Notes under the pieces: generated by a model | The model's input: the letters and a program-made list of their open reading frames with translations, nothing else | The model's database searches: none | Told to the model about the DNA's origin: nothing | Shown: positions 20,409 to 63,775 of the stretch, piece by piece | Layout of the letters: each line of letters starts with the position of its first letter | Numbering within the stretch: position 1 is the stretch's first letter | Position numbers and translations under genes: made by a program | Assembly (NCBI GenBank): GCA_000004985.1 | Contig: GG738934.1 | Direction: 5' to 3' (one strand) | Length of the DNA: 64,000 bases | Source of the DNA: Naegleria gruberi | Taxonomy: Eukaryota

Positions 20409-20582
20409 TTTGATGATGAACTTTTTTTTTAATTCTAAAAATACAATTTGTGATTATGAAAATAAGAGAAGAACATTTGGCAAAGGTGTGAAAATGAAGT
20501 TTTGAAATTGAAGTCTCTTGAAGAACATTGTAAATCAATGTTTACAAAGAGAACTATTTAGAACTCTGCGTGTGAAATGTTA

Positions 20583-21971: not shown

Positions 21972-22010
21972 TTTTTTATCTTCTAAAATACAGGTAATGA
22001 ACTTTGTGGT

Positions 22011-28499: not shown

Positions 28500-31322
28500 T
28501 TGAATTTTAATAAGCAATTTAATAAGCAAGAGAAGAAGAAGATGAATCCTAACAAGCCTAAACCTCCTCCACTCACCATCATTACTAAAAATCATCAGAC
28601 GAACAATTGTACCTCCACAACAACAACAATATCCTTCTCTTCCACCACTAATGGAGCAGCAAGAATTGGTATGAGTAATGATAGTGGAAGTCCTCTACAA
28701 AGAGTGACAGCAAGTTCGGGAGAATATCAACGTTCGGGAAGTACAACTGAGAGACCATTATTTGTGAGGAATAATTCATCCCCTCAAGTTGTTACATCAT
28801 TTGGTTTTGGTAGTCCACCAGGAAGTCCATCATCAACCTCAAATTCCAGTAGAAAGAACAGTCATACAGCCATTCATCCATTTCAGCACCAGAATAGTGA
28901 TAATAGAACTAGTATTAATAGAGATTTAATGTTACCTTTTGATTTTTGTAAGAAGGAAGATGAAACATCGAAATGGATGAAGTTTTACTTGTGTTGTTTG
29001 AGTTTGAGAGTGAAAACCATGTCTGTACTAATGTTGACATTTCTAATGATTATGGCCATGTGTTTGATTGGATTAGTCATTTCCTTTGATGTTTCATTTG
29101 ATAGTGTTGAAAAGAAAGAAGCATTAGATTCATCTAGAAAGACTGCCAAAGCTCTCTTTGATGATTTTAAATTCATTTCAGAGAAGGTCTATGATTTTGC
29201 CTCTTGGGATGATTCGTATTCTATTATGAAGACTGAAAATACGACAATTGCCGACAAGATGTTGGATCTCTATTTTTCTTGTGCCTATATGAAAAGAGCT
29301 GGTATTAATTTTTCAATCATGTACTATCCAAATGGTACCTTTTTTAATGGAAGAGCTTGTTTCGACATGTGGAAAATACCTGAATTTCCAGATGAATTGA
29401 AAGCTTTAAGTACAAGCTTTTTTCAAACAGACGACAATTACAATGGTAAGATTGTCACTTCTTCTGCCTTCCAAGCAGTATTTACTCCAAGAAGGAATTT
29501 GGCTCAATTATTTAGTTCTAATTCTCAAGTACCTGCTAATAGTTTTGTAAATGCAACAAATATCATCTTGGCAGTTGCCCTACCAATACAACCAAACAAT
29601 AATTCTGATCAGAATGGTGTATTTCTCTACGGAAGATACATGACACAGTCACTCAGTGATGATATCTCTGTCAGAACTCAATACTGTACCACTTTTTTTG
29701 ATCTCACCAATAATGAGGATTTAAATCTACTAGAAGATGACTTTAAAAATTTTCAAGGTCAACTCAATAACAAGTCAGCAACCAAAGTGAGTATCAAGTA
29801 TCAGAGTTGGGCTGACGACGAGCCATTCTATTACTCGTACAATATGAAATACTCTTCCAGCAAGAGGAGAAGTTGTGCTGAAACCTACACTAAAGAATAT
29901 TACACTTCAAGAATGGCAACTTATCAATTATATTCTGATTACAATAATTCAAATAGTATTGTCATTAGAACTGATTTTAATAGAGAGATTTATCAAGTTG
30001 GTTGGACATCATTTATGTATACTTGTTTTGTTTTGATAGCTATTGTTTTTACACTCCTTATTGCAGTCATGATCTTTGTAGAATGTGTTGTTTTGAGAAG
30101 AATTTTGAAAATTGGATCTACCGTAAAAAGCATTACCAAAACTAATGATATTTCCAAGAGAGTTCCCAATTCAGGATTTGATGAATTGGGACGTTTATGT
30201 AAGGATATTAACCACATGTTGATGGCATTGGAAGAGTCACAAATTAAACTTGCTAAAGACAACCAAATAATGCAACAATTGCTGGAAAAAACAGCCCTCG
30301 AAGAACAAAAATCCAGATGTGTTATGAATAGTATCTCAGACTTTATTGTCACTGTAGAGTGTGATACTGGGCTTTTAGTCAACATCAATACAGCATTTGA
30401 AAACAAGCTTTTAAAAAAGAATTCCTTTGCTAGATCCAACTCGGCGAGCCACTTAACTTATGCACCTACTCAATCCTCCTCTCCTAATTCTCCAAATTCA
30501 CCAAATTCACCAGGAGATCCTCCTCTAATAAGAAGATCAACAGTTTCACCACCAACACCAAACTCTAAGAATATTTTTGAAACTCACAATATTATGGAGT
30601 ATATTAAGGATTTTGAATCATATGACGAGTTGAAAGAATTGTTAGAATCACTCTCTAAAAATAACAATGGTTCCTTGCATCATGAAACATACATTCAGAA
30701 TGATTTCTCTATCAAATATCATGTGAGCGTTAGTGTCACCAAAGTGAAAATGACCATCAGAGAAGGTTTAATTGGAGATGCCTACATTGTTCTTTTGAGA
30801 AATATGGTTGAGCAAAAGGAATTGAAGAATATTCTTACAAAACAACAAGAAAAACTCGAAGAAATGAAGAAAATTTCAGAATTTAACAGAATTTTCAAAG
30901 ATCCTCATTGGAGAGAATTGTTCAAAGTATTTGCAGCTAGTGAACTTTCAGCTGAGAATGTTCACTTTTTGGAAGATATTGAAACTTACAAGTCGCTCTC
31001 AAAAACAAGAGACAGAGCAGCACTCTTGGAAGAAATGGTCAACAAGTATTTACTACCTGAATCACCTTATCCTTTAAATGTTTCCAAAAAGACAGTTGAG
31101 ACTGAAATTAAAAAGATCACCTCGGGTTACGGACAGCTAGACTTATTTGATAAGATTGAATCAATTATTAAGCTAATGGTTGTGAATGACACATTCTCCA
31201 GATTTCTTTCCAGTAAGATCTTTAGAGATTCTTCTGCCAATGATCTTTCAAGAACTTCCTCTTCTCTTACTAATGGCCAAATAGATGCAATTTCAGAAAC
31301 CCAAGTCAGTTTGGATGTGTAA
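28500..31322 (+). CDS. Receptor-like RGS protein: TM1, extracytoplasmic sensor region, TM2, HAMP, PAS, C-terminal RGS domain.
   Basis: TM1 MSVLMLTFLMIMAMCLIGLVISF and TM2 FMYTCFVLIAIVFTLLIAVMIFVECVVL flank a ~270-aa N-glycosylation-rich loop. HAMP: RRILKIGSTVKSITKTNDISKRVPNSGFDELGRLCKDINHMLMALEE. PAS-like: RCVMNSISDFIVTVECDTGLLVNINTAFE... RGS: ..WRELFKVFAASELSAENVHFLEDIETYKSL..DTFSRFLSSKIF. Poly-Pro/Ser and SPNSPNSPNSP low-complexity tracts. Confidence 0.8.
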   Translation: MNFNKQFNKQEKKKMNPNKPKPPPLTIITKNHQTNNCTSTTTTISFSSTTNGAARIGMSNDSGSPLQRVTASSGEYQRSGSTTERPLFVRNNSSPQVVTSFGFGSPPGSPSSTSNSSRKNSHTAIHPFQHQNSDNRTSINRDLMLPFDFCKKEDETSKWMKFYLCCLSLRVKTMSVLMLTFLMIMAMCLIGLVISFDVSFDSVEKKEALDSSRKTAKALFDDFKFISEKVYDFASWDDSYSIMKTENTTIADKMLDLYFSCAYMKRAGINFSIMYYPNGTFFNGRACFDMWKIPEFPDELKALSTSFFQTDDNYNGKIVTSSAFQAVFTPRRNLAQLFSSNSQVPANSFVNATNIILAVALPIQPNNNSDQNGVFLYGRYMTQSLSDDISVRTQYCTTFFDLTNNEDLNLLEDDFKNFQGQLNNKSATKVSIKYQSWADDEPFYYSYNMKYSSSKRRSCAETYTKEYYTSRMATYQLYSDYNNSNSIVIRTDFNREIYQVGWTSFMYTCFVLIAIVFTLLIAVMIFVECVVLRRILKIGSTVKSITKTNDISKRVPNSGFDELGRLCKDINHMLMALEESQIKLAKDNQIMQQLLEKTALEEQKSRCVMNSISDFIVTVECDTGLLVNINTAFENKLLKKNSFARSNSASHLTYAPTQSSSPNSPNSPNSPGDPPLIRRSTVSPPTPNSKNIFETHNIMEYIKDFESYDELKELLESLSKNNNGSLHHETYIQNDFSIKYHVSVSVTKVKMTIREGLIGDAYIVLLRNMVEQKELKNILTKQQEKLEEMKKISEFNRIFKDPHWRELFKVFAASELSAENVHFLEDIETYKSLSKTRDRAALLEEMVNKYLLPESPYPLNVSKKTVETEIKKITSGYGQLDLFDKIESIIKLMVVNDTFSRFLSSKIFRDSSANDLSRTSSSLTNGQIDAISETQVSLDV

Positions 31323-33893: not shown

Positions 33894-35600
33894 TTAGAAA
33901 GTATCATCTTCAAATTTAAATGAAGAGGCTGTTCCAGGAGTTGGTGTATCCATATCGAATTGATCTCCACCACTCAAACCACTTCCAGGTGTCGATTCAT
34001 CCTCCATTACATCATTTACAAATGTGGTTGGATCCAAAACTCTTTCCTTTGATCCTTGAATCAGTGCCTTTTGATAAAATTCCTTAACATCATTCATGAA
34101 TTTATCAGCTTGAGCATTGGCTTCAATATGCTTCCATTCTTCGTCCAATCTGACAACTCCCTGCACTGTACCAGTTTGAGGATTATATGTTGTTTGAGAA
34201 TTGGAATAGGAGACGACATAGTATGGAAGAATGAGTTCATTATTGAATACAGCATGATTCATAGAGTCGGATGTTCTTAAAGAGTGATTAGCTCCCAAAC
34301 TGGAAATATCAGCATTTTGTAACTTATTCAAATCACGAACAGCACTTCTACCTGGCAAGACAAGGAAGAGCATAATCTTGGTGTTCTTGGCAATGACAGC
34401 ATTAGCTTGTGCAGCAAGATTTGTAAAGACATATGGTTTGCCACTGTTATTTCTTACACCATTCTTACAAATCCAATCGATATTATCATCACTATAATCC
34501 GAAATATCCATAAATGTTAAAATTGGCTTGACTTCAGGATATTTGGTATTCAAATCGTAGGCAAGATTATGTCTACTGGCTTCAAATTGTTTAACCAAAC
34601 CAGGTGTGACAACATATTTAACTTCGGTAATTCTAAATTGTGTCTTGGTAGTGAGCAATCTGTAAAATTCAGATTCAGCAACTCTAAAGTGAATGTGAGA
34701 AACTTCATTGGAGAAGGTTCTTTCTGGTTTGAAGGTAAATGTTCTTGGTTCATCCCTTTCCATTGTTTCATATTCTCCAGGCAAGTACATTCTATTCTTT
34801 TTGTATTCTTCCTCTTCAGTGAGAGTGCCATCATTACTGGAACTGCCAGTTTCATTCTTTCCGATCCAATCTCCCAAAGATGAAGAGGAAGATTTACTCT
34901 TGAAGGATTCTACTTGTTTGGTCAATCTATCAGTTTCCTTCTTTTCCATATCAATCATTTCTTTCATTCTCTTGATACGATCACTTAAAACATTGACATT
35001 ATTTTCATATTTTGGAAGTGTAACATCTTCAAAGAATTGAATAGGTGGATTTTCACTATTTGTACTCAAACTTTCAGTTTCAATAACTTCCTTTGCTTCC
35101 TTGATAATCTTCTTGGTTTTGATCTTTGGAATATCTGGACGACGAGGTAATTCACCTGTCAATAATCCTTCCATAGCTGCTTCTTCACGACCTTTACATC
35201 TAATCAAAGCATCTCTAATTTCTTTTGTTTTCTTATCAGGAAGTAATTGTTTCAAACTTCTAACCTTTTCTTTGTATCCTTTAACATGTTGTTGGATGTA
35301 TCCTTCTTCATCTTCTTCAATAATTTCAATTTCTCTCTCAACGAGAATTGTCTTTTTCTTTACAAAATGTCCTCTCTTTTCATTTTCTCTTTCTACACTT
35401 TCATTCAATAATCTAGTTGACAATTTTGAACGAGCAAGTGTCAAATCACGTTGTAACAAATTTTTCAACTTGGCAGATGAAACTTTCCCAAGTAATTGTT
35501 CAATTTCTTCGAGATCGGACACTGTAAAACTGTCCAATGTTTTGACGTACTTTTCCAATAGAGGATTTTCAGGATGTGATTCAACAGCTTGGGAGATCAT
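33894..35600 (-). CDS. CUE/UBA-like domain protein with coiled-coil regions and a C-terminal globular domain of unknown family.
   Basis: 568-aa ORF. ..TKEIRDALIRCKGREEAAMEGLLTGE.. resembles CUE/UBA helices. Acidic coiled-coil ..EREIEIIEEDEEG... The C-terminal ~280 aa (..FRVAESEFYRLL..IMLFLVLPGRSAVRDL..) is not recognised. Confidence 0.55.
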   Translation of the reverse strand: MISQAVESHPENPLLEKYVKTLDSFTVSDLEEIEQLLGKVSSAKLKNLLQRDLTLARSKLSTRLLNESVERENEKRGHFVKKKTILVEREIEIIEEDEEGYIQQHVKGYKEKVRSLKQLLPDKKTKEIRDALIRCKGREEAAMEGLLTGELPRRPDIPKIKTKKIIKEAKEVIETESLSTNSENPPIQFFEDVTLPKYENNVNVLSDRIKRMKEMIDMEKKETDRLTKQVESFKSKSSSSSLGDWIGKNETGSSSNDGTLTEEEEYKKNRMYLPGEYETMERDEPRTFTFKPERTFSNEVSHIHFRVAESEFYRLLTTKTQFRITEVKYVVTPGLVKQFEASRHNLAYDLNTKYPEVKPILTFMDISDYSDDNIDWICKNGVRNNSGKPYVFTNLAAQANAVIAKNTKIMLFLVLPGRSAVRDLNKLQNADISSLGANHSLRTSDSMNHAVFNNELILPYYVVSYSNSQTTYNPQTGTVQGVVRLDEEWKHIEANAQADKFMNDVKEFYQKALIQGSKERVLDPTTFVNDVMEDESTPGSGLSGGDQFDMDTPTPGTASSFKFEDDTF

Positions 35601-36090
35601 TTTATAGATTTACTACTATTATATAAAATTTAATGAATATTGGTAGAGATTTGATGATGATCGTAAAATTGATCGGAGGTTGGTTATTAAATTACAATTT
35701 GTACAAATTTTGTTGTTGTTGTTATTTTTCAATGTGGGTGATGAAAAACCTTCTAATTCGATTATTACTATTCAATATCTACTATACTCTCGAGAGGTAA
35801 AAAAAGCGTGCGGAGAAGAGTTTGAATGTTTTGACTTTTTTTTTGATGGTTAAATTTCGACTTTCCAGTGGTACAAACTTCCAAGTTCACCACAGCAATG
35901 AATTTGGTTGGTTGAATGAACGTTTCAATACTAATAACAATGAATTTGATTACAAAATCAACTTCCACGAGAAATTTGGAAAGAAAAGAAGGTCTATTAA
36001 TGGAAGAGTGCAAAGATGAAAATGTAGGATGTGATTCTTTGAGGTTTCATGCAAATTGTAGTTTTTGAAAAAAATGTTCTTTGTAATAAT

Positions 36091-37359
36091 TTATTGGTTG
36101 CTGTTAATAGAACGAGTGAGACAAAACTTGATCAAACTCAAAGTCTTTGCAGTTATCTTACTAGTGCTCAAATCACTTGGAGAATCGAAATGAGTAAGAT
36201 TAGGATAAACTTGACTAAATGTTAGACGAGCATCTCTTTGAGATAAGACATCGATCAAATTCTTGTAATCTTCTGGGTGAACATTGGCGTCAGTTGGAGA
36301 ATTGAGTGCGCAAACAAATGGCATTGTTGCTGACTTGAGTAAATGTAGTTTTGTAAACTCAATCGAAGTATAATTAAATGCAGATTGAATGAATCTTCCA
36401 CTAACATAACCTCCAATATTGTAAGCCCAGTCAATTGGATAACTACCCTTCTCAAAGAGAGGGAAGAAGTTTGCTAATGCAACTGCAGTCTTATTACTAA
36501 TATCCATATTCGAATTTGCTATTGGAATGAGTTGAGAAGTTGGATCTTCCTTTTCACATGCCTCTTTCAAAATATTCCAATTAGTAACCATTCTCAAATT
36601 TTGTTTCACTAGAAATTGTCCATAATTAAATACCAATCCATTCATTAGAAATACGTTAATGACTTGCTTCCCCATTTTCACATTACTTTCACTGTTGAAC
36701 AAATTAAATGATTTGAGAACTACATTGACACCTTCTGAATGTCCCAAAATTCCCAACTTGGAAGGATTGACATCTGGACGAGTTGACAAATATTCCAATC
36801 CACTCACTGCATCAATTGCAAAATCATCCAAGGTTACTAAATTGTAATCAAATTGCTGAGGTGCATCAGAAGGTCCTCCATACCAACAATTCTCAAAATG
36901 ATGCGTCAATTGATTCACAGTACATAATTTACACTCCTCATGTCCAGAACAATGACCTCTCTTATCATAGGTCAAAACAACCAATCCACTCTTTGCCAAT
37001 TCCATTCCTAGTTCATAAAACACTTGAAAATTCATAAAGGTCAATCCACAATTTGGATCCTTCTTTGGAAAACCCATCGTATTCAAAAAGGCATAATTCA
37101 TAGCTGATTCATTTCTATTACTAGCTCCACTTCCATGTACTAGCACAACAGCACCTCTTTGAACAGTTGTTTCGGAACCAGAAATAATTGGTTTATAGAG
37201 CGTTCCATGCATGATCAATTTTCCAGAGGGAGCATTCGATACGAAAGCAACACTTTCAGTGGCAACCTCCAATGAAGCAGCCTCTACGGATAAATTAGTA
37301 GCTACAACAAGTAGCATCAATAGAATTGATGAGAAGGAAATCAAAGATGTTTGGCGCAT
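36091..37359 (-). CDS. Secreted alpha/beta hydrolase (GHSEG nucleophile).
   Basis: Signal peptide MRQTSLISFSSILLMLLVVATNLSVEAAS. ..AVVLVHGSGASNRNESAMN.. (HG oxyanion motif). ..LGILGHSEGVNVVLKS.. (GxSxG). His near the C-terminus ..NLTHFD... Confidence 0.75.
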   Translation of the reverse strand: MRQTSLISFSSILLMLLVVATNLSVEAASLEVATESVAFVSNAPSGKLIMHGTLYKPIISGSETTVQRGAVVLVHGSGASNRNESAMNYAFLNTMGFPKKDPNCGLTFMNFQVFYELGMELAKSGLVVLTYDKRGHCSGHEECKLCTVNQLTHHFENCWYGGPSDAPQQFDYNLVTLDDFAIDAVSGLEYLSTRPDVNPSKLGILGHSEGVNVVLKSFNLFNSESNVKMGKQVINVFLMNGLVFNYGQFLVKQNLRMVTNWNILKEACEKEDPTSQLIPIANSNMDISNKTAVALANFFPLFEKGSYPIDWAYNIGGYVSGRFIQSAFNYTSIEFTKLHLLKSATMPFVCALNSPTDANVHPEDYKNLIDVLSQRDARLTFSQVYPNLTHFDSPSDLSTSKITAKTLSLIKFCLTRSINSNQ

Positions 37360-37610
37360 TTTTTTTTGTAAAATGAAATTAAGCGATTTTTATGCCGACA
37401 GAAAACCTTTAAATTCATTACAATGATTACTCAGGTTGATGCACATTTTTCGTTTCTTATGTAATTCTTGAGAGATGGTTTAACAATGGAGGAGCATAAA
37501 ATATTGATTCCTCCATACTTGTTTCCAGTAAACATCTTTCATGAGTGTATTATCGAAAATAAGCATAACTGAAAGGTCTATGTTGTGGAGCCTTAATACC
37601 TTAACAAGAA

Positions 37611-37693
37611 GCGTCGATGGTTTAGTGGTAGAATACGGCGTTGCCATCGCCGTGACCAGGGTTCAATTGTATGTTCAATTCCCGGTCGACGCA
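37611..37693 (+). pseudogene. tRNA-Gly(GCC)-like, copy 2. It carries a 12-nt tandem duplication in the T-loop and a C->A change in the T-stem, so it is a probable tRNA pseudogene. It is inverted relative to copy 1, about 35.7 kb away.
   Basis: GCGTCGA TG GTTT AGTGGTA GAAT A CGGCG TTGCCAT CGCCG TGACC AGGGT TCAATTGTATG TTCAATT CCCGG TCGACGC A. The anticodon arm is intact here. The T-arm reads CAGGG..ttcaattgtatg + ttcaattcccgg, where copy 1 has CCGGG TTCAATT CCCGG. The 5' flank gccttaataccttaacaagaa matches copy 1's flank gccttaatatcttaataagaa. Confidence 0.6.
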
Positions 37694-37905
37694 ATCATTT
37701 CTTTTTAATTTTCCTCTTTTTAATATTCTCTTTTACTTCTGTTTACCATAAAAACTATACATTTATTCCTATCTATCATCCAAAAATTGCAGCCTATAAC
37801 TCAATATTAATCGAGAATTAGTCCTCAGGTTGACCCCATTTTTTTCTTTTCTTTTAAGTTTTTAAGTTGCATTTTATTTTATTGACATAAATTAGGAATT
37901 GGAAA

Positions 37906-40900
37906 TCAAGCAGTTTCTTCTTGAATTGTTGGGGAAAGTGAATCGTCATGTTTTGTTCTACTAAACGAAAGACAATCACTCGGATTAATGACATAGGTTT
38001 GCATGGTTCCCTTTCCTTTCACTTCAATGCGTCTTTCCTCAAAGGCTGAATATTTTTCCTTTAGTTTCGAATAAACTACATCAGTAACTTGAATATGACC
38101 TGTTGGACACAAGTATTCCATTCTTGAAGCCGTCTATTTAAAATATTAGCATTACAATTCAGAATTTCAATAACTTACATTCACAGCATCTCCCCAAATA
38201 TCATAGGCATATTTCAATACTCCGCAAACTCCCGCAACCAAAGGTCCTGCATTAATTCCTGCCCTTAATCCAATATTCCAATTACGATGTTCATTTCTCA
38301 ATTGGAAATCATTAAATATTTCGAATAGATTCAAAGCAAATTCGAAAACCCTCAATTCATGTTCTTCATCTTTCATTTCATTCGCTTTTAGTCCGCCAGT
38401 GCAAAAATATTTCGATTGAATTGTTTTGATTTTTTCCAAATTGAATCTGACACATGCCTCATCGAATTGCATGACAAGATCATTAAGGTTTTGAACTAGG
38501 TCAGTGGCACTTAATCCTAAATCTAATAATCCAACTATGTCAGAAAAAATACATGTCACATGATCGAACTTGTCAGCAATCAAATTTTCACCACCTTCTT
38601 GTAATCTCTTTGCAACACTATAAGGCATGATATTCATCAATAAAGCTTCACTCTTCTTCTTCTGTTCTGCTAATTCCTTAACTTGCATTTTAATTTCTGT
38701 CAAATCTCTGATAAAACAAGTAATGACATTTCTACTATCTGTAACCGAAACACAAATTCTCATTTCAACTGAAACAGTTGCTAAATTCTTTCTAACACCA
38801 ACCAATTCCAATGTTTCTGAATAGCCAGAGCTTGCCATACTCATCTGAGTAATGATTGGTTGTAAACTTGCTTCTGAACTCTTATCGAATAGTTTCACCA
38901 ATGGGAAACCTATCATTTGATCTGATCTGAACCCAAATAACTTTTCAGATGCATTATTGAAAATATCGATGGTTCCATTTGCAGAACAGACAATGGCACT
39001 TGTTAAGGCAGCTTCAAGAATGGCCCTTTCTTTCGGTACCTTTCGTTTTGATTTCTCTTTTGGATCAGTTTTAAGAATGTGATGGAAAATGTAATTTCTC
39101 AAATCGTCATTCGAATCCAACACTTCCCAATGGAGATAATTCAACATTTTCCTCAACACATAATTTTCATTTCGAACATTCTTCATTGTCATGAAATTCA
39201 ACATGTAGCAAAGTAATAATAATGGAATTCCCACAACTGTTCCAATTATGGTAAAGTATGGCTGTGAATTAAAGTAGGCATAGTACAAAATTTCGTTCAG
39301 AGAACCGAATGTTCCATATAAATCATAAGCAGTCAAATACAGAAATTCTGGAATTTTGTTCAAATCTGAAACTGTTCCATTGTAAACTCGAAGAATTTCA
39401 TTTAGCTTTACAGCTTGAGCTCTAAAGAAACCAACCTTATCATCCATTGAATTACAAGAGAAAGTTGAGCAATTTGAAGATGTCTTTCCAAGTAAATTGT
39501 CAAGATTTGAATTAACTCCGCTCAAGCTCAAATAACCATCTACAGAACTTCCATATCTGGTAGCTGTCCAATGAGTATCGAAGGAAGTAATGTGATCAAG
39601 AAGAAGTTTGGATCGTTCTTCTCTGAATGTCTGGTTATCGAGATGTAATACCATTTGGAAGATGTCATATCTTATTTGTTGTTCATAACTCATGGCATAT
39701 GACATTTCTCTTAATTTGACAACACCATAAGTGTGAGCTTGAAAATCTGTAAAAACATCAGCTATAATCATAGATAATGCAACACAAGTAACCAAAATTG
39801 AAAAGATATCCAAGAATATTAACTTGGTGACAGATGTGAAAAGTGACTTGGTTGAACTTTTGACATCTTGTTCTTCGCCAACAACCTTTTCCATAGTAGT
39901 GATGAGAAATCTTGACTCTTCTTGTGGTACTTGATGAAACAATCTCAAAATTAACTTTCTATTGTAAATAAATCTTAATAGGAATAATGAGTGAACTATC
40001 GAATAAACCAAAAAGGAAAAGAATATAAAAACCACAACAATTATAAAGTCATTTGTAGTGCTATTCAAATCACTATATAAATATTTGTAAATATCTTCAA
40101 AAAACTGTGCAAATCCATTCGACATTCTCTCCACATTATTCCCTAAAAAGGTAAATTGTGAATTATCCAATGAAATCTTATCACTCGACTTGGTCTGATT
40201 AATTAAATCAACAAGTGTCAAGAGTAACATTTTGTTTCTCTTTGCAATCCAATTAGTTGACGTATACTTCCAACTCCCGCTCTCATCATCCACTAAAATC
40301 AACTTATCCTCCGCATTGTAATACTCAACCACAGTATCATCATATTGAGTGGAAAATAATTCATTCAAATTCTCCAATTTAACTGCCTTACTCGAGCCGA
40401 GTGTGTTGATTTTGGATCTGAATGTTGGAATGCTCCAGATTGAGGTTGTGTTTAAGGGTCCGACTTGTCCGTTCAAATTGTTAATGTTAATTAAGGCTGA
40501 GAAGGGAAGTGCAGTCAAAACCGAAACACTATCGAATAGATCGAGAGAGGTAAGTTTGAAAAGAAGTGAAAGACCAATGATTAAGACCATTAAGATGAAT
40601 AACAATTGAAATCCACCACTCGTATTCAAAAAATAGAAGAGTTTCTCATTTTCGTCTGGTTTCGAAATGGCATTCGTAAATATTTCCTGTTGCTTGTCTA
40701 AAACAGTTTCAAAATTTTCTTCTTCCTCTTCACCCATCATTGAAATGGAATCAAAATTATCCAACATTAAATCATCAGTTGCGAATAGATTATTCTTCGT
40801 TGGCGAAAGTGCAAGAAACTGCATTGGTGGTTTCTCACTTTCCTTAATTGGTTTCTCTTCTTCTTCGTCTTCGTTTCCCATGGCCATGAAATTGAATTCT

Positions 40901-42957
40901 CTCTGATAGTGTTTGTATAATTGTTGGATAGTTTCGTCTTCTTCATGATCGAGAATGAGATTTTGGAATGCAACATCCAATTCATACGAAAGTGATTCAA
41001 TCTTTTGTAAAATGTGGTCGACATTGGATTTGGACGAAACTAATTTCCAGAATTCGATAATCATAATTCTGAGTTTCTTCATACGGAGATTTAATCTTTC
41101 AATTACTGTTTCACCAACAGTTCCTTTGATTTTCATGTTAATTGCCAAACTTTTTTCCAATTCTGCCATTCGCATATAAATGGCGAATTGTTGACGAAAG
41201 TTTGGTTTTCGTTGTTCTGCCTTTTTGAGGAAAGTGCTGGCTTGGAAATAATTTGGAGGTTTGCAAATATCTTTCGAATAGAGAGCCATGTTGATGAGAC
41301 AATTACAACTAATCGAATCTGTGGTACGAAACAAGATTCGTACAAAATCAAAGATGATATCTTGTTGTTCTTCAGTTCCTTTCAATGCAAATTTGATAAA
41401 ATTGGCCAAAGCTGGTAAATTTGAATGATTAAAGTTCAATTCATGAGTTGATTGTGAGCTAGTCACAACAGATGCAATTTGCTGACCTTTCGTCATGATT
41501 CGTCTAGTATAAATATCCGTCACAATGAAACCAATTACAAATCCCACAATTCCCAAAACAATCGGTGCAAAAGTAAGTCCCAAACCAAGATCCCAATCAT
41601 CATTCTTATTTACCAACGTTGAAACCAATGCCGAAATTCCAACTCCAAGTCTTGCAAATCCAATTCCACCATAAACGGAATTTGTTGACCTGTGAAAAAA
41701 AGGCAAGTCCTTAAACAGTAAAACAATGAAAACCAACGCCATAATAATGAACATGATTGGACGAATGAAATTAATCATGTGAGGGAAAGTTCCAGCCACA
41801 ACATTATACAATTGATTGGAGCCAATAATGAAAGCCATCAGAAATGGTGTGTCCATCACAAAAGCTGACTTGACTTTGACATCTGTATCACAAAATAACA
41901 ACACAGTATTCATGGTAATCAATATTTGAATAATGCAAAATAACCATGACACTATTCCCAAAACAATATTCGAAACTCCCAAACATTCCACTGTTGGAAA
42001 CCTTCTCAAAACATAAGTTGCATCATAAGCTCCACTCAGAGTAACTGTCTTTTCATAATCACAATCGAAAAATGCATGAATTAAGGCAAAGGTCACTGGC
42101 ATTGAACAGAGCGTGATGGAAGTAAAGGCAATTCGTCCAGCTGTTCGAATTCTTTTCCAATAGGAAGTACCATAAACTAGTGAACGATAGGTCATGTAAA
42201 TGATTGCTATTGCTATACTTTCCAATAATAGCAATGCAGCTGCTAGTCCTATATATGCCTCATATGGAAGGTATTGGAATCCAAACGTTCTAGGAATGAC
42301 AAGAACATTCATAATGTATTTACCATATTCCCCCCACCCAAAATCCAATGAACATCCCAAAACGAGAGATTGAATCATTATGAAAATATGTAAAGTTATT
42401 GAAATGAATCTGTGAAGTGGATTTTCCAACTTGACAGCTTGAATAAACATCAAATACTTGTCGATATATTCATTCATAACAGTTGTATTTTCATCATCTT
42501 CATCTTCTGGATGAGGAGTTTCATCTTTTGCATCTTCATCCCAAAAATCTGTTGATTTCGACTTGATTTCCTTGAGCTTTGAAGAGTTGGTTGATGGTCT
42601 TTGAATACTTCTAATGCTTCGGGAACTTCTTGCAGTCCTTATTGAGGCTGTACTTTGAGTTGAAACCAACTTGTGAGGTGATTGAATATTCTGATTCGAA
42701 TTGTTTAGTCTAGGTTTCGAATGACTTTGAATAGAATCTAGAGGCGTAATCCTAGAAGTTGATTTACGTTTCTCCAACAACAATGACCTAACAGAAGCTT
42801 GAGATTTTTGCTTTTTAGAATTTTGAGCTAAGAACGGAACATTACTTGAGGGGGTTGGTGATTTTGGTGAGGTTGTTACATTGAGATGATGATTTGTATG
42901 AGTTGGGATTATCAGCACTGCTGCTGAATCTTCGTTACAAGAGTTAGAAGAAGACAT
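37906..42957 (-). CDS. Multi-TM receptor-type class III nucleotidyl cyclase, C2-like subunit: about 6 TM, cytoplasmic coiled-coil region, TM/extracytoplasmic loop/TM, PAS, cyclase domain. Two exons: 42957..38179 and 38133..37906. Intron 38134..38178.
   Basis: PAS: ILEAALTSAIVCSANGTIDIFNNASEKLFGFRSDQMIGFPLVKLF... Cyclase: ..LLMNIMPYSVAKRLQEGGENLIADKFDHVTCIFSDIVGLL..EKIKTIQSKYFCTGGL..GLRAGINAGPLVAGVCGVLKYAYDIWGDAVN|TASRMEYLCPTGHIQVTD..IEVKGKGTMQTY. The first metal Asp (FSDIVG), Lys, Asp (YDIWG), Asn (AVN) and Arg (ASR) are present. The second metal Asp motif IGDAY reads IQSKY. Confidence 0.85.
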
Positions 42958-43282
42958 GATGCCTTTTTGTTGTTTTTATTTAATTCGTAAGTTGATGTTT
43001 GCTGATTTGATTGTTTGAATGGTTCTTCGAAAAATTACGATTTTGGTTTCCTTGGGACTTACCATAACACAACCATGATATTGCTTTTTTCACTTGGAAA
43101 TTGTTGAGCACTTAAATTAGCAAAAAATAGGGAAGTTTTGATTCCTGTTGATAAGTTGTATTCTGAAAAAGGTGCCAATTTTAACTAATTCCATGAATAC
43201 ATCTCTCCTCAACAATCACCACAAACAACTTCAAATCCCATCAACACTAGAATAGTCCTTACAGTTGGTCAATTAAAAAATT
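42958..43282. promoter_or_regulatory. 325-bp shared divergent intergenic region between the two head-to-head cyclase genes (candidate bidirectional promoter).
   Basis: Minus-strand start codon at 42957 and plus-strand ATG at 43283. AT-rich with T tracts. No motif is asserted. Confidence 0.45.
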
Positions 43283-46200
43283 ATGNNNNNNNNNNNNNNN
43301 NNNNNNNNNNNNNNNNNNNNNNNNNNNNNNNNNNNATTTGAGAGCTCTCTTCAAACTAAAGTATTTGATAAAGAAATTGATGAAGAGCTTGTAAAATATG
43401 CTACATCCAAAAGGAATAGAATGTCTGCAAGTACTTTGATAATGAGTGCCATTTATACTTCAACCTTTCATGATAATCCTCAATTTTCTATTAATACTTT
43501 GAAATATGCGTTAAGACAAGCATCATTCGTTCAGAAAATAACCATCAACTCCAAGATTAAGGAAATTGAAGTTAGACACGGCTATCAAATGACAACCGAG
43601 TTTAGTACTATGCTGCTACAAGCTCAAAAGGTGGAAAATAGATTGCTAATGTTCAGAAAATTGTTTTGGCAATACTTTGTTAGCAATGAAGACGATCAAA
43701 ACAAAATTAACGCTATCGTTCATGCCATGTACAAAACTTTTGAGGAAGGAAAGGTAATTTATGACCTGCTAGTTGTTTCCAATCCTGAAAATCAAGTTCT
43801 AGCAAAAAAGAGAGCGTTATATTTTGATAATTTCTTATTTAGAAAGGTAATGACCAGTAAGAAGTCATCACCTTCTTTGAATAAGGAAGCTACTGGTGAG
43901 GATAGCAAATCGACAATTTCGAACAGGTCTACACAGAATCCAGAGGTAACAAAGAGCCAACAGGTACAAGTGAATGATCAAGCCCACGAATACACTGAAA
44001 AGGTGTACAGAGAGGCAATTAATACCAAGTTTACTATGAAACTAACCTTCCTATTTTTGATTTATGATGCCATTGCTCTGCTAGCTATTTCAGTTGGAAT
44101 AATTATTGGTGTAATCTCTTCTCTTCATGGAGATGAACTTGTAAGAATCTTACACGCCTGTCAATTCACTAATGTTCCGTATTCTCTATTGAGGGAAGTT
44201 AGATTGGCTTATTATTTTAGAAATGATCCTTCCACTTATAATTTTAACAATTTTTATGAAAGAATTACTGCTTTAAAGCACCTTACAGAAGATGGCAAAA
44301 TTAAAAGCTATTCACATCTTTCTGGAGATGCTTTAAACTATTACTCTGGGAATAACTTCCCAGTCATGGTACCCACAATTTCTGCTGATAATAGAGTATC
44401 CTATAAGTGGCAAAATGTATCAATTGCCTCCTTGATATCCGATATCGAAGTAGTTGTCAACAAGTTAAATTCATGGAATATTAACAGCTTCCAAAATTTA
44501 GAGAGCAATTATGAATATTTGTACCTCTCATTTAACCATGAATTAACATCTGGGTATATGGACCAGTATTGCCAGTCTCTCACAAATGGAGTGGTAAATC
44601 ACCCATACGATGAGGCAGTAATAGTCAACTCTGTTTTGTTAGGTCTACTTGTAGTAGCCACTGTTATTGTAATCGTATTACTAGCAACACTTAATATCAA
44701 AGAAAAGATAATCAGTCTCTTTTCAAAAATACCAAAAGATATTGTGGGAATTCTGAATATTGAGTTGGAAAAGCAAACTGATAAGAAGTGCGACAATAGC
44801 TCATACTCTGAAATATTTACATTCAAAGTGAAATTGTTGATGGTTCTTTTGGTAATATTTCTAGTTTGTGTTACTTCCTTATCAGTAACATTTTATGAAG
44901 CTTACAGTTTAGATTTCAGTTCTAGAAGCTCAACTTTAAAGCTTGGTTACATGTCTTCCCTACTGATAAATCTTCATAAGGATCAATTAATACTAGAAAA
45001 CAAGATTATTAATGGATCTAGCAATAGTTTGGGTTCTTCCAACAATGCTATTGAACGTTCATGGATCGTTTTTAGATATGGTAACCATAACTATCCAACA
45101 ACTTTACATTCTATATCAAGCAATGCCAAGTTCTTACTTGAAGGTAATAGTAGTTGTGGTACAATTAATTGCACAGGTCTTGATTCATTATTAGAGAAAT
45201 ATGTAATGAATATGGACTCTATTGCCTTCAGTACTAAATTGTCCAATTCCACTCTTGTAATGTTTTCCACCCTACTCTCTGCAATTTCAGCTAAGATACA
45301 TTCTCTTGGAGATGATTTAGTAGATCCAATAGTGGGTGTTCAAACCAAATTGGCTCTTGGTGTTTTCTCTGGAGCTTTTGTTTTGATATTGATTATTGCA
45401 GGATTACACTACGCAGAGCTGCGAGAATATGTTGATGAATGTAATCACACAAGAAGTATGCTTAGTATGATACCTTTTGATATAATTTCGCANNNNNNNN
45501 NNNNNNNNNNNNNNNNNNNNNNNNNNNNNNNNNNNNNNNNNNATATTTGGTGAAGGTCAAAACTCTGTTTCTTTAAAGGCAGTACTAGATAAGTTATTGG
45601 TTGCTACCGAATCTGCTGGAGAACATTTGGAATTGGAAGCAGTCAGAAAGAATGGCAGTTCTCTCTCAGTTGGTGTGTCCGTATCTGTTTTCCACCATGA
45701 AAATAAGAATCTAATTACAATGCTATTGAGGGATATTACTTTCGAAAAAAAGGTATGTTTTTGTCACCTAATTCTAATAATTGAATCATAATAATATTAT
45801 TATAATATTCCATTAAATAATCAATAGCACAAATTATTGCTGGCAGAGGAGAGGAAGAAAAGTGATAATCTACTATTGAACATTCTACCAGAACGTATTG
45901 CTCAAAGATTGAAAGCTGGTGAGACAAGTATCTCTGAAAAGTTTGATGATTGTACATGTCTGTTCAGTGATATGGTTGGTTTCACCAAAATGTCATCAGG
46001 TCTCACTGCCTATGAATTGGTGCAACTTCTCAATTCAATTATTAATGGTTTCGATTCTTATATTACCCCTCTCGGTTTGGAGAAGATCAAGACGATTGGA
46101 GATGCTTACTTTTGTGTAGGAGGACTGAATGGACAGACAGATCACCCGGAAAAAGTAATTACATTTGCCATTCACATGCTATCTGTCATTAATAACTACA

Positions 46201-47942
46201 ATACCAAGAACAATACCAAACTCAACATCAGGTAGGTTTTTCTCAATTTGATTTCATATCTAATTAATCATTAGAGTTGGAATCCACACTGGTCCAGTAA
46301 TTGCTGGTTGTATTGGCCAACAGAAATTTGCATATGATTTGTGGGGTGAAACTCTAATTATTGCCAATTGTACGTATTATTATAATTTTTGAAATTAAAT
46401 TATCATTCGTGTAAAGTGATGGAATCTAAGGGAGTACCAGGAAGAATTCAAGCATCAAGAAAGACCTATGAAAGAGTATATGATATTTTCGAATTTGAGG
46501 AAATCAAGGGAATTGAACTAAAACCATCAGTGCTCGTAAATACCTACTTACTCAAAGAGAAGCATCATGACATTAATACAAACTTTAGTGATGGATTTGA
46601 TAAAATGTTTGCAGGTCTCAATATGTTCAGTCCAAAAACCTATAACTTTTCCAAGATCATTCAAGACCGCTCTCTCATTCAAGGATTCAAGGATTTCTTC
46701 ACAGACTCTGAAAAGGTGAATATCATTAACTTTTACGAGTTGTGTCAAGAGTATGTGAGCTCTCCAATTCCAAGTCTTCGTTATAATATGGCAGAGAATA
46801 TGGTAAGAGATTACCTTGAAGAAACTGCTCCCAAAAGATTGCAATTAAAGTATGTGAAGAATGCTTTTGGCCCATTTCAAATGAAATTCAAGGACTGTAA
46901 TGATGATAATTGTCCTTCTGATTTATTTGAGAACTTCCAAAACCTATGTCTCAAAGTAAGTATTATTATTGTTGTTGTTCATCCAATCATTACAATTACT
47001 GTTGTACAATATTATAATATAACAATAATCCTTTTAAAGGCATTACGAGAAGAATTTCCAGCATTCATCAAGTCGAAGAATTTCAATAAGTTCTTGGAGC
47101 AAAAGAAACGTAACCCAGAACAGCTGAGACCTTATGTGAAGGATGAAAATGATGATGATGATGAGGATGATGAGAAGGCCTTCTTCAAGTTTTGTGAAAA
47201 GTGTGGAACTGAAATTATCAATTTGGAAAACCACCGTTTCAATGATTATGAATTTAACAATAGAAAGGAACTCTTGTTAGAGTTGAATCAGTGGAGTATT
47301 CACTTTGAGGGTAGTGGTGGTAAGACCTATATCAGTCCTGAGGTTGCTCACAACCATTTGAGTAATAGTAGAAGGCACGTTCAACTCAAGTATGTGTACG
47401 ATATGAATTGCAAACACAAGGACCTTTTCAATGCTTGGATTGATGAAAAATCCCTCTCAACACGAGTAGCACAATTAACCTCCTCCAAACATGTTGATTC
47501 TGTACAGGTTGGAAAGTACATGCACGTGGTTTGTCATGAAAACTTCAAGATGCCCTTCCCACGCTCCAAGAGAGAATTTGTTCATGCCTATTCTTGTTCT
47601 TACAATCCAAGTGAAGAAGTCTACATGTGTATATCACGTAGTATTAACAATCCGAGAGCACCTCCATCAAGACAAATTCGTGGAGAAATCAAGACTGCCT
47701 TCATGGTCAAAAAGTTGTCTGAAACCACTTGTAGATATTACTATTCTGTTATTATTGATTGCATGGGAATGCTCTCACCAGAGTATTATACCAAGAATAT
47801 TTACAAGGAAATTCAACAAGATTGTTTCCATGTCAATTTGGTTAAATTTGTTGATGAATTTGCAAAGGAAAATCGACAACCTTCCGGACCATTGGTAAAT
47901 TCACTCAATTATTATTTGGAACATCATGATAGTAGTAAATAA
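43283..47942 (+). CDS. Multi-TM receptor-type class III adenylyl-cyclase-like protein, C1-like subunit, with a C-terminal RGS domain and a further C-terminal domain. Exons: ..45752, 45828..46231, 46275..46369, 46417..46955, 47040..47942. Two 50-N gaps inside exon 1. The true 5' end is uncertain.
   Basis: TM segments: [80 protein letters not shown]: ..[43 protein letters not shown]. Cyclase: ..[56 protein letters not shown]|[31 protein letters not shown]|[14 protein letters not shown]..; both metal Asp plus Lys/Asp are present, and the Asn/Arg positions read I and L. RGS: [64 protein letters not shown]|[15 protein letters not shown]. Introns have GT..AG with consistent phases. Confidence 0.8.
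43286..43335. other. 50-N assembly gap inside the cyclase gene
   Basis: Exactly 50 N; conventional unknown-size gap. Confidence 0.99.
45493..45542. other. 50-N assembly gap inside the cyclase gene
   Basis: Exactly 50 N. Confidence 0.99.
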
Positions 47943-48368: not shown

Positions 48369-50543
48369 TTGCTTTACAAAAAACCTTTCGAATTTTTCAA
48401 AATGGTCTTTGGAAACAATAATTCATCATCACCGAATGATATTTCACCTAGGAATAGACGATTCGTATTTCAACAAGCTACTACAACACACCATCATCAT
48501 AATCATCATCATCACCATCATGGTGGTCATCATCACGAACAAGAAGATGATTCATTGGTTGCGAGTGGAGAATTGGTGATGAGACAGAATGGATTTTTTG
48601 GTAGATGGAAAAAGTAAGTAAAATCTCCTTTACATGTGATTAGTTTACTTTCGTTCATTCACATGACTATTTGAAATGTTCATTTCTTTTGGTGTTGTCC
48701 AACTCTTAGATTCTTCTTTACACTAACAAAGGATGGAGCTTTTGTTAAATTCAAAACCTCTGATTTTCACACACCCATGCAAACATACTTTCTAATATAT
48801 TCACACAATTTAGTTTGTGACGGGCACAAAAACGACAAGTACAATATGGTGACAACAGAGGCTGCATTTGAATCACCCACACTTCCTCAACCAGCTAATA
48901 ATTTATGTGGAAAATCGAATAGTATGCTCTTGTTTGTGGAAAATTCAGTGGCAGAAAAGGAAACTCTTGTTGTGGTGGCTCCTTCTGCTGATCAGTACAA
49001 TATGTGGATGAGAGCTTTTGAAATTGTATTTGAAAATGCAAAATATGAAATGACAGTTAGTACCATGATTGATGGTACATCCTCATCATCAGATTCTGGA
49101 TCATCTTTCACAAGTCATGAATCATATCATTCAGATAAGCAAATTACATTTGATATTTACAAGAAGGGATTGAAGATTTCAAATTTAATTGATGCCATGA
49201 CAGATCCTACTGTCATTGCAAATGATAAGGGAATAATTATAGGTGTAAATGGTGCAGCAGAGGCAATGTTTGAGTGGAAACATATTGAACTGATAGGAGA
49301 GAATGTCAAAGTTCTCATGCCAACAGTATTTGCCAAATATCATGACGAGTTTATCAATAATTACAAAAAGACGAGAAAGCAGAGAATGATTGGAAAGCCA
49401 AGAAATGTACTAGGAAAGACAAAAAATGGAAGAACATTCACTGTAGAGATTTCAGTGGGAGAAATTTCAGGACGAATGTCATCAGATATGATTCATTCAT
49501 CGGAACATGAGAATATAATTGGAGATTTGTCATTTATGGCTGTGTTTCGAATTCCTTTCGGTTCTAGTTTCGGATCTTCTTCAGATTTATCGTGGGACAG
49601 CTCGAGTATGAGTTCCAGTGAATCATTCAATGAGAAGGAGAAGGAGGACGAACACGATTTTAACACCATGATCGAGGCGAGTGTAAAGAATTTTTCACAT
49701 CACAACACAGCACCTCTACCACCTAGGAATTTGAGATTAAACATCTCCAGTTCAAAATCATCCTCAGCAGAGGATGTCTTTAACGATCCAGCTAGAAGTT
49801 ATAGTGATGACGATAGTGATTCTTCGAGTGACAGCGATGTAGAACAGTATATGATTTCACCACCTCGTGGTGGACCAACACATTCAGCACTGTTCAATTG
49901 CATTTCATATTCACCATCCAGTTTACAAGAGAGAAAGGAAAAGATTTACAAACGAGTGGAAAAGATTGAAAAGAGGAGCAGAACTTTGAAAGATAACGAA
50001 TTCAACAAGCTGAAATACAAATTTCTACTATTGGAAAAGCAGATTAAAATCATGGAAGAGGAAAATGAAAAATTATTCACTCAATTAGAAACACAACGAG
50101 AATCAATTGAATTATTGGAGAGAGAAAGCCGAGTAATGTTATCATCACCAGAAGTTTCAGTATTTATTGATATGGCAAACAGCCCTTCATCCTATGAATC
50201 AATTTTGAAGTGGGCAACTAAGAATGGTAAACTAAATCATGTCAGATGTTGTAAAAGTATAATTGATTTCAGTGCCAAATATTCCAAATCAATGAAATCA
50301 GCATCCTATTCACTCCACAAACAACACTTCAAGATGGAGAAGAATGCAAGAGAAATATTCGATGAATTCTTCTCTTCCCACGCCAAACATCCAGTCATTC
50401 TCTCGGAAGAATTGGCCGATACCCTATTATCACATTTGGACACTCCAACGTCTCACATGTTTACAATGATACTTTACGAAATCATAACGACTAGTATATC
50501 TTCTGAACAATTATGGAATAACGTATTTTCTGGACATATTTGA
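48369..50543 (+). CDS. PH-domain / PAS-domain / RGS-like-domain signalling protein with a poly-His tract and Ser/Asp-rich linker. Two exons: 48369..48613 and 48710..50543.
   Basis: Intron 48614..48709 (GTAAGT..TTAG, phase 2) splits the PH signature ..GELVMRQNGFFGRWKK|(K)FFFTLTKDGAFVKFKTSDF... HHHHNHHHHHHGGHHH tract. PAS: ..MTDPTVIANDKGIIIGVNGAAEAMFEWKHIELIGENVKVLMPTVFAKYHDEFINNYKKTRKQ..GKTKNGRTFTVEISVGEI. C-terminal RGS-like half: ..AREIFDEFFSSHAKHPVILSEELADTLL..HMFTMILYEIITTSISSEQLWNNVF. Confidence 0.75.
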
Positions 50544-59827: not shown

Positions 59828-60037
59828 CGAAAACCTATTCTCATAAAATGAACCACTAATATTGGCTATCCAGTTATTATATATGTATTACTATATAAAA
59901 TAATCTATCTATTCTGTAATACACGTGAAAAAACTCCCCGTAGTTATTGAGATAATCAAAAATGGTCAACTCAAAAATTCCTAGTATATCTATTATCTCT
60001 GCGACGAGAACGTTCCGGGTTATGATCACTCAAAATC

Positions 60038-62974: not shown

Positions 62975-63775
62975 CAATGGTATCAACAGTTATATGATTC
63001 ATGATAGTTTAAAATTGCGTTGGTCATCTAAGGATAGGTCATTAAGGTTTGAATGAATTGATATGAAATTCAATACCAATTATTGATATACCATGATTTA
63101 TTGATCTATATATGATATTATAATTGAAATATTTTAAAATTAATATCATTTGACTATTTTGACATTCATAATTCTCATGATTACACTCCTGACATGTTGG
63201 ATGATTTCATATTGTCTTGAAACTGATATACTAGTGTTTGTACACCACTAGTAAGGTACTGTATCAGTTTCATGATGATCTGTATAGTGGATGTAATTGT
63301 CACATCCCTGTAGGTGTCAAGTAGATCAGCCAAGTACCATGTATGATATGGATGATCTTCAAAATCAAATAGATATATTTAATTATCATGTATAGATGTA
63401 TTAGAAGTGAATTGAAGTGGAAAAGATTTCTATCTTCAGTGTTAGTATAGGTCAGTTGACAAGTTGAATAGTAAACATCCTGAAATGATACCAAAGTATT
63501 TGAAATTGATATATATTGTTATTAACATGATTTAAAAGGTGATATATTGATTTGAAATGATTTTGAAATGTTTTCATTGATATTCTAATTGTCTAATCTA
63601 TTATATGAAATTAACTTATATAAGTCATTATAATGATGTAATATTATGTTATATTATGATTATATATTCAATTTGGAGTATATTGATATATAATATATTG
63701 ATTTATAATGAGTATTTATTGAGATAATTAATTAAGAAGAATAAAAGTCAAAAGGTTGGGTCTGACCTTAGTCGT
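62975..63775. repeat. AT-rich, gene-free telomere-associated sequence with short local direct repeats
   Basis: No credible ORF. Repeated motifs such as tatgatatggatgatc, atatattgat and ttatgttatattatgattatat. It ends in the degenerate telomere-like ggttgggtctgacc just before the array. Confidence 0.6.

Follow-up and report, generated by a model that had tools for sequence, protein, structure and literature searches.

Oppositely degenerate, head-to-head receptor-type cyclase genes in Naegleria gruberi: predicted C1-like and C2-like half-enzymes of a trans-encoded adenylyl cyclase

We have analysed a stretch of 64,000 nucleotides of the Naegleria gruberi genome (contig GG738934.1 of assembly GCA_000004985.1; hereafter the window, with an overall GC content of ~34%) that carries a pair of large receptor-type class III nucleotidyl cyclase genes. 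A tblastn search of the window evidences only two class III cyclase homology domains (CHDs), which lie head to head on opposite strands as an initial annotation of this DNA had proposed, and both of which match PF00211 as full-length catalytic domains, far above the cut-off of 21.9 bits (Table 1). The architecture common to the two kinds of protein consists of an N-terminal cluster of several transmembrane (TM) segments, a TPR_TmcB-like region, two TM-flanked extracytoplasmic loops, a PAS domain and the CHD, the TM segments being predictions from a hydropathy scan.

The catalytic positions, namely first metal Asp, GFT loop, Lys, second metal Asp, Asp, Asn, Arg and the KxK motif, were read after aligning all cyclase domains to one hidden Markov model. 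Canonical Naegleria paralogues present the signature D-GFT-K-D-D-N-R-K-K, whereas the plus-strand protein reads D-GFT-K-D-D-I-L-K-S and the minus-strand protein D-GLL-K-S-D-N-R-K-K. In the plus protein, therefore, the two metal Asp residues and the GFT loop are intact, but Ile stands for Asn, Leu for Arg and KPSV for KGKG. The minus protein, in contrast, has Lys, Asp, Asn, Arg and KGKG in place and shows Ser instead of the second metal Asp and GLL instead of GFT. Neither chain contains all six of the canonical residues that a self-sufficient homodimer would need; instead, the losses fall on opposite half-sites and the two signatures together hold exactly one complete composite site. The lysine motif, a C2-side element in membrane adenylyl cyclases (tmACs), is split in parallel with the other residues, as VKGKG in the minus protein corresponds to LKPSV in the plus protein (ELKPSV at 46515-46532).

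We have also re-derived the splice junctions of both genes from the DNA letters. The Ile in the Asn position of the plus protein is coded within an exon and not at a junction, and the codon of the Leu in the Arg position is split by the junction 46369|46417-46418, which has the expected GT..AG borders. No alternative junction restores the missing residues, as read-through of the donor at 46370 meets a stop and the 47-nt intron codes for no alternative. The initial reading of the catalytic residues in both genes, and of the junction on which part of it depended, is confirmed.

The minus-strand gene encodes 1668 residues in two exons, and its initially proposed start at 42957 holds, being the first ATG after a stop in a single open reading frame (ORF). 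From its N-terminal side, exon 1 encodes a cytoplasmic Ser-rich region, six predicted TM segments (41521-42408), the cytosolic TPR_TmcB-like region, four more TM helices around two loops of ~170 residues (39199-40605), and finally the PAS domain and most of the CHD; its homology is colinear with two N. fowleri loci (L003 and L004). In the protein, the PAS_9/PAS matches cover residues 1311-1421 and the cyclase domain residues 1461-1643. Removal of the intron restores the full-length PF00211 match, and the N. fowleri orthologue reads WGDTVNIASRMES at the corresponding site. The ORF is 100% identical, over the shared part, to the public N. gruberi protein P0121 of a 97.6-kb scaffold. That model (2426 residues; window 33894-42957, minus strand) is, however, a chimera: it lacks the exon with the catalytic Arg (TASRME..), running on from ..WGDAVN into an alpha/beta-hydrolase-like ORF (36091-37359) and a third ORF (33894-35600), and it cuts out as a false intron ~110 codons of TM helices whose N. 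fowleri counterpart is coding.

The plus-strand gene is visible from the edge of assembly gap 1 onwards, where the TPR_TmcB-like region is followed by four TM helices around two extracytoplasmic loops. This part is 36% identical to residues 98-841 of a second N. gruberi protein, NAEGRDRAFT_45297 (P0278), and its homology to a related gene at an N. fowleri-like locus (L001) begins at window position 43349, aligned with L001 position 8831, a point that already falls in the middle part of the related proteins. As a consequence of gap 2 the PAS_9 match is partial (19.8 bits), compared with a full match of 47 bits in P0278. The real size of this gap, estimated by homology to P0278 and to L001 (11125 to 11339), is at least ~210 bp, and the 50-N lengths are thus placeholders. 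Four further introns (45753-45827, 46232-46274, 46370-46416 and 46956-47039; 43-84 nt) are all of the GT..AG type. The last of these, with 84 nt, is in frame and lies inside an RGS domain, which upon its removal matches PF00615 over the entire profile (1-117 of 117; 36.1 bits, cut-off 23.9). The C-terminal domain is START-like: its homologue in protein P0034 scores 33.3 bits against PF01852 (cut-off 22), whereas the window sequence itself gave no Pfam match at E<=1 and no match in a PDB profile search, and its AlphaFold2 model has a mean predicted local distance difference test (pLDDT) score of 40.6, too low for use. Neither of these two domains had figured in the initial annotation.

The start of the plus gene, initially placed at 43283, cannot be taken as established. 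This ATG, with an in-frame TAA two codons upstream, is formed by the last three bases before gap 1, and relatives carry ~470 further N-terminal residues that include the multi-TM cluster. In L001 the gene starts ~1.4 kb farther upstream, with the TM cluster in the same exon, and P0278 also has TM helices upstream of the point that corresponds to the gap edge. We have found no copy of this N-terminal part anywhere in the window, nor any similarity between 42958..43285 and the N-terminal exons of relatives. Protein searches returned no annotated protein identical to the plus gene (43336-47942), probably because of the two gaps.

Table 1. Features of the two cyclase genes and of the stretch between them (window positions).
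Feature	Position	Strand	Details
Minus exon 1	38179..42957	-	codons 1-1593; single ORF from first ATG after a stop
Minus intron	38134..38178	-	45 nt, GTAAGT...AG; separates ..GDAVN and TASRME..
Minus exon 2	37906..38133	-	TASRME...VKGKGTMQTY...stop
Minus PAS domain	38695..38994	-	PF13426 47.8 bits, PF00989 28.3 bits
Minus CHD, C2-like	37984..38577	-	PF00211 139 bits, profile 3-182 of 183
Minus CHD motif FSDIVGLL	38524-38547	-	
Minus CHD motif KTIQSKY	38407-38427	-	second metal Asp changed to Ser
Minus CHD motif YDIWGDAVN, TASRME	38116-38205	-	interrupted by the intron
Minus CHD motif VKGKG	38008-38022	-	
Minus-gene ATG to gap 1	42958..43285		holds the 5' flank of the minus gene; ends in ATG 43283-43285
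Assembly gap 1	43286..43335		50 N; conceals the plus-gene 5' part (~470 codons in relatives) and the true intergenic stretch
Plus visible 5' part	43336..45492	+	frame open from gap edge; TPR_TmcB-like cytosolic region first
Assembly gap 2	45493..45542		50 N; conceals ~70 codons, the N-terminal half of PAS among them
Plus exon	45543..45752	+	C-terminal half of PAS, start of the PAS-to-cyclase linker helix
Plus exon	45828..46231	+	linker and first two thirds of the CHD; FSDMVGFT 45963-45986, KTIGD 46089-46103
Plus exon	46275..46369	+	Ile in the Asn position at 46357-46359
Plus exon	46417..46955	+	LMESKG..., CHD end, start of the RGS domain
Plus last exon	47040..47942	+	remaining RGS, acidic linker, CxxC stretch, START-like domain ~47238-47939, stop
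Plus CHD, C1-like	45933..46556	+	PF00211 168 bits, profile 3-182 of 183; two introns within
Plus RGS domain	46644..47093	+	spans intron 46956-47039

Comparison with known structures evidences the same division between the two domains. Against mammalian adenylyl cyclase 9 (AC9), the plus CHD scores higher with C1 (116.7 bits) than with C2 (87.2 bits) and has the ANLME motif in common with C1, whereas the minus CHD scores higher with C2 (100.6 bits) than with C1 (66.4 bits), in agreement with the C1/C2-like division of labour first suggested for the pair. PDB matches of both CHDs include AC9, Rv1625c-type cyclases and soluble guanylyl cyclase (sGC). Common descent with the animal C1 and C2 domains was considered and rejected: in a rough neighbour-joining tree the plus clade branches within the canonical heterolobosean CHDs, so that its C1 likeness looks convergent, and the minus CHD sits on a long branch near C2 domains, a placement that we do not trust. 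The genes are likewise not metazoan-type tmACs (class IIIa, 12 TM segments), as each has one CHD combined with a TM cluster, four further TM helices and a PAS domain. A recent tandem duplication was also discarded as the origin of the pair, since the two CHDs are only 37% identical to each other and the two lineages split before Naegleria and Willaertia diverged.

Homologues were sought with residues 470-1593 of the minus protein and with a PAS+CHD fragment; the whole minus ORF as query recovered almost only itself, low-complexity words dominating the search. The plus-like lineage comprises the window gene, P0278, loci L001 and L002, and Willaertia magna ABK040_006139 (P0257). P0278 is 72% identical to the window plus gene in the PAS-CHD part and 60% in the RGS/START part; its public model is mis-spliced right after ..GETLTIAN and lacks LMES.., the CHD end and part of the RGS domain. 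L001, which is flanked by genes with 90% or higher identity to N. fowleri FDP41_001634, 001637 and 001640, reads GETLSIAQLMES and VKPSV, L002 reads GETVSVAQLMES and VKPGV, and the Willaertia protein reads FSDIVQFT, KTIGDAY, GETVIVGSKMES and VKDKM and has neither RGS nor START. FSD..FT and KTIGDAY are kept in all four relatives. L001 and L002 were at one point taken as orthologues of the window plus gene, an assignment that we have dropped because they are nearer to P0278; they now stand as members of the plus-like subfamily. L002 also carries, at an exon/intron boundary within the CHD, an insertion of ~1.45 kb (398-1850) that looks like a transposable element of the terminal-inverted-repeat type, with sub-terminal inverted repeats at 405-417/1796-1808 (100% complementary) and 426-445/1761-1780.

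The minus-like lineage comprises the window gene, N. fowleri FDP41_010148 (P0130, at L003) and FDP41_008682 (P0291, at L004), and Willaertia ABK040_006184 (P0256), the best non-self match of the minus protein. Both N. fowleri proteins read ..GLL, KTIGSKY, NxASRMES and VKGKG, and the Willaertia protein reads GFA and KTIQEKY with Asn and Arg kept. Every plus-like member strictly retains the two metal Asp residues, the GFT loop and Lys/Asp, and every minus-like member Lys, Asp, Asn, Arg and KGKG. Both degenerate patterns are thus conserved in Naegleria and Willaertia, which speaks against pseudogenes, the ORFs being intact and the losses shared between genera. The RGS/START fusion appears to be specific to Naegleria, as the Willaertia plus-like gene is devoid of that extension. 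Among long single-CHD representatives of the receptor family about 31 of 40 are canonical and the remainder are degenerate one way or the other. In the transcriptome of Pharyngomonas kirbyi, a deep-branching heterolobosean, two single-domain receptor cyclases (P0305 and P0329) comprise a C2-like one reading T-K-E-D-N-R and a C1-like one reading D-K-D-D-D-E, and complementary degeneracy may therefore be widespread in heteroloboseans, or may have arisen more than once.

Class III cyclases are known to assemble each active site from both chains of a dimer, at their interface: one chain supplies the phosphate loop and the two metal-binding Asp residues, and the other supplies the base-specifying pair, Asn, Arg and Lys. 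Since sites are assembled in this way, neither a plus nor a minus homodimer is expected to form a complete site: the former would be without Asn or Arg, and the latter would have an incomplete metal site. A plus/minus heterodimer would contain exactly one complete Lys/Asp site, which predicts ATP as substrate, and one degenerate pseudo-site, as had been anticipated in the initial annotation. The plus protein would then act as a C1-like half-enzyme that contributes both metal Asp residues together with the GFT phosphate loop, and the minus protein as a C2-like half-enzyme that gives the adenine-specifying Lys/Asp, Asn, Arg and KGKG. The overall architecture and the PAS-to-cyclase linker region are alike in both proteins, which would be compatible with co-assembly. 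The RGS box may in addition recruit G-alpha-GTP, which would either regulate the cyclase or be the substrate of a GTPase-activating function, a possibility that fits the rich G-alpha/RGS repertoire of Naegleria, with many RGS proteins and self-activating G-alpha subunits (PMC9283941).

On balance we lean towards the view, derived from sequence, that the two window genes represent two conserved, oppositely degenerate subfamilies of heterolobosean receptor cyclases that form ATP-specific heterodimers of a C1-like and a C2-like half. The strongest argument that such a heterodimer works is that each lineage keeps, throughout Naegleria and Willaertia, exactly those residues that it would have to contribute. 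The sequences, splice junctions, residue patterns with their conservation, and domain content are direct observations; heterodimerisation, adenylyl cyclase activity, the window neighbours being each other's partners, and the RGS link to G-alpha-GTP are inferred.

A number of observations weigh against this view. The plus gene is incomplete in the assembly, broken by two gaps, and the head-to-head position of the pair in N. gruberi depends on the scaffold join across gap 1. As the proposed ATG abuts this gap and ~470 codons are missing, the 325-bp intergenic region that the two genes had been thought to share is unproven. The adjacency and orientation are not conserved in N. fowleri or in Willaertia either, none of the loci L001, L003, L004, L005 and L006 having an adjoining partner cyclase. 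In N. fowleri the plus-like gene is flanked by FDP41_001637 and FDP41_001640 on a contig of 730 kb; FDP41_010148 and FDP41_008682 occupy other contigs and have no cyclase within 10 kb of them. At L001 the upstream neighbour of the plus-like gene is a Ctr transporter. In Willaertia both lineages are on the same 520-kb contig (JBEGDK010000002.1; L005 and L006, at ~363 kb and ~452 kb), ~89 kb apart and in the same orientation, neither being adjoined by a partner cyclase. Furthermore, partner identity is ambiguous, with at least two C1-like genes in N. gruberi and at least two C2-like genes in N. fowleri. Since each lineage has paralogues the partner is not unique, and the description of the neighbours as a unique, co-regulated pair, whose shared promoter rests on the gap-edge ATG, is not supported. 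Any canonical paralogue could provide the missing half, and Naegleria has ~80 cyclases per genome, 62 of which are co-expressed in N. fowleri trophozoites (PMC9283941). Finally, the second metal Asp of the Willaertia C2-like protein is replaced by Glu, which might still bind metal.

In a distinct scenario the degenerate subunits would pair mainly with complete paralogues as modulatory or dominant-negative partners, so that one site is active and one dead while extra sensor, RGS or START inputs are added, and the adjacency is a historical leftover. The size and co-expression of the cyclase repertoire, the predominance of canonical members in the family, the ability of a canonical subunit to give either missing half, the presence of paralogues in each lineage and the lack of conserved adjacency are all in its favour. 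However, exactly opposite halves have been lost and each lineage retains what the other is missing, a pattern that mutual complementation predicts and that dampening does not require, and the two lineages are physically linked both in N. gruberi, where they stand head to head, and in Willaertia, at a distance of 89 kb. We therefore regard this scenario as rather doubtful, although it is the most serious of the alternatives.

As to this linkage, chance was estimated to produce the adjacency at ~2ab/15,700 and the 89-kb linkage at ~0.5%, on the basis of gene number and genome sizes. Given these low values some ancestral linkage of the two lineages is plausible, whereas a conserved bidirectional unit is not. 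Other genes were noted around these loci. At L001, 5 kb downstream of the plus-like gene and on the same strand, there is a gene for a TPR_TmcB/PAS/cyclase protein of 1614 residues (18283-21992). In the window, 7 kb from the cyclase pair, a 940-residue ORF (28500-31322, plus strand) carries CHASE4, HAMP and RGS domains and encodes a receptor-like RGS protein whose extracellular sensor is of bacterial type, and directly downstream of the plus gene a 588-residue ORF (48777-50543, plus strand) contains a PAS domain (PF00989, 40 bits) outside which no family match was found. Besides the two gaps in Table 1 the window holds two other runs of N, at 1-332 and 60038-62974 (332 and 2937 bases), and the ORFs called across 59962-63002 are artefacts of the translation of N.

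We consider it unlikely that one or both proteins are non-catalytic pseudo-cyclases, with the CHD as a dimerisation or nucleotide-binding scaffold and the RGS and START-like domains as the output of the plus protein. The plus protein does lack three catalytic residues and has two further signalling domains from the exon of the CHD end onwards, and the wealth of RGS proteins and self-activating G-alpha subunits mentioned above would provide such an output with a context. Yet the catalytic residues of each half are strictly conserved, which a pure scaffold would have no reason to maintain, and the Willaertia plus-like protein displays the same residue pattern although it has no RGS or START domain.

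Also improbable, in our judgement, is that the head-to-head arrangement is an artefact of a scaffold mis-join across gap 1. The two genes are on different contigs with a 50-N placeholder between them, the size of gap 2 is demonstrably wrong, and a look-up of the exact products of two window ORFs in other assemblies found no contig that spans gap 1. In spite of this, the scaffold is colinear for 20 kb on both sides and the two lineages are linked in Willaertia as well; in fact, a mis-join would touch the adjacency argument only, leaving residue complementarity unaffected. The idea that the degeneracy is simply tolerated, a minus homodimer (with one Asp and a Ser) or a plus homodimer being active by non-canonical chemistry, is very improbable, because even if the minus protein keeps five of the six canonical residues including the first Asp, and its Willaertia counterpart has Glu in the second metal position, the minus protein has also lost the GFT loop, and in class III cyclases (as in Rv1625c or in tmAC mutagenesis) loss of either metal Asp, of Asn or of Arg lowers activity by orders of magnitude.

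The proposed pairing of half-enzymes finds precedents in other systems. The C1 and C2 halves of mammalian tmACs have the same division of labour, the same residue signatures and ATP specificity; indeed, the signatures of a fish tmAC (C1 DKDD-T-H, C2 SKSDNR) equal those of the plus and minus proteins, except that the minus subunit, unlike C2, retains the first metal Asp. The tmAC halves are, however, joined in one polypeptide of 6TM+6TM, whereas the Naegleria proteins are two polypeptides of another topology with PAS domains. In sGC alpha/beta, as in the Naegleria pair, each of two genes encodes a single CHD; a catalytic site and a pseudo-site are present in the heterodimer, and the homodimers are inactive (PMC3591389, PMC1435932), but these proteins are soluble, GTP-specific and metazoan, with H-NOX/PAS/coiled-coil sensors. 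Caenorhabditis elegans ODR-1/DAF-11 is an obligate heterodimer in which each monomer gives essential residues to a single catalytic site (PMC5225109), and both are separately encoded membrane receptor-type class III cyclases, like the Naegleria pair. They differ in being guanylyl cyclases with a single TM segment and kinase-homology and extracellular ligand-binding domains, devoid of PAS, RGS and START; moreover, their heterodimer is genetically and biochemically supported, while the Naegleria proteins are multi-TM and their ATP specificity is predicted from the Lys/Asp pair. The chytrid RGC1/RGC2 and NeoR proteins are genomically clustered multi-TM sensor-cyclases, each with its own sensor, that are separately encoded and active only as obligate heterodimers (PMC8815786). 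Unlike in the Naegleria pair, no catalytic residue is missing from their cyclase domains (PMC8815786), the dependence on the heterodimer being located outside these, and they have rhodopsin sensors and are GTP-specific.

The trans-encoded precedents sGC and ODR-1/DAF-11 indicate that the logic is already known and render the pair plausible (PMC5225109, PMC3591389). Our search of the literature brought up neither heterodimeric nor RGS-fused cyclases for Naegleria, and the novelty first claimed for the arrangement thus stands for this genus but not as a concept. What would be new is a predicted ATP-type, multi-TM/PAS, trans-encoded pair with one half fused to RGS and START-like domains. As a more tentative extension, which at present seems possible rather than probable, receptor adenylyl cyclases divided into trans-encoded C1-like and C2-like half-enzymes may be an old trait of heteroloboseans, present in Naegleria and Willaertia and possibly in Pharyngomonas, that evolved independently of the animal tmACs. 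With the RGS and START-like domains that the C1-like half carries in Naegleria, a single site that forms cyclic AMP would there be steered by two extracellular/PAS sensors, by G-alpha-GTP and perhaps by a lipid signal, and the head-to-head arrangement of N. gruberi would be the ancestral, co-regulated state that has been retained.

If heterodimers of this kind are formed, they would represent an independent protist case of the animal-type design of one catalytic site plus a regulatory pseudo-site, built in this instance from two separately encoded multi-sensor receptors, one of them with an RGS domain. They would also provide a direct path from G-protein state to cyclic AMP synthesis in Naegleria, and would help to decide which of the 80-100 cyclases of this genus, those of the pathogen N. 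fowleri included, are catalytic, half-catalytic or regulatory subunits.

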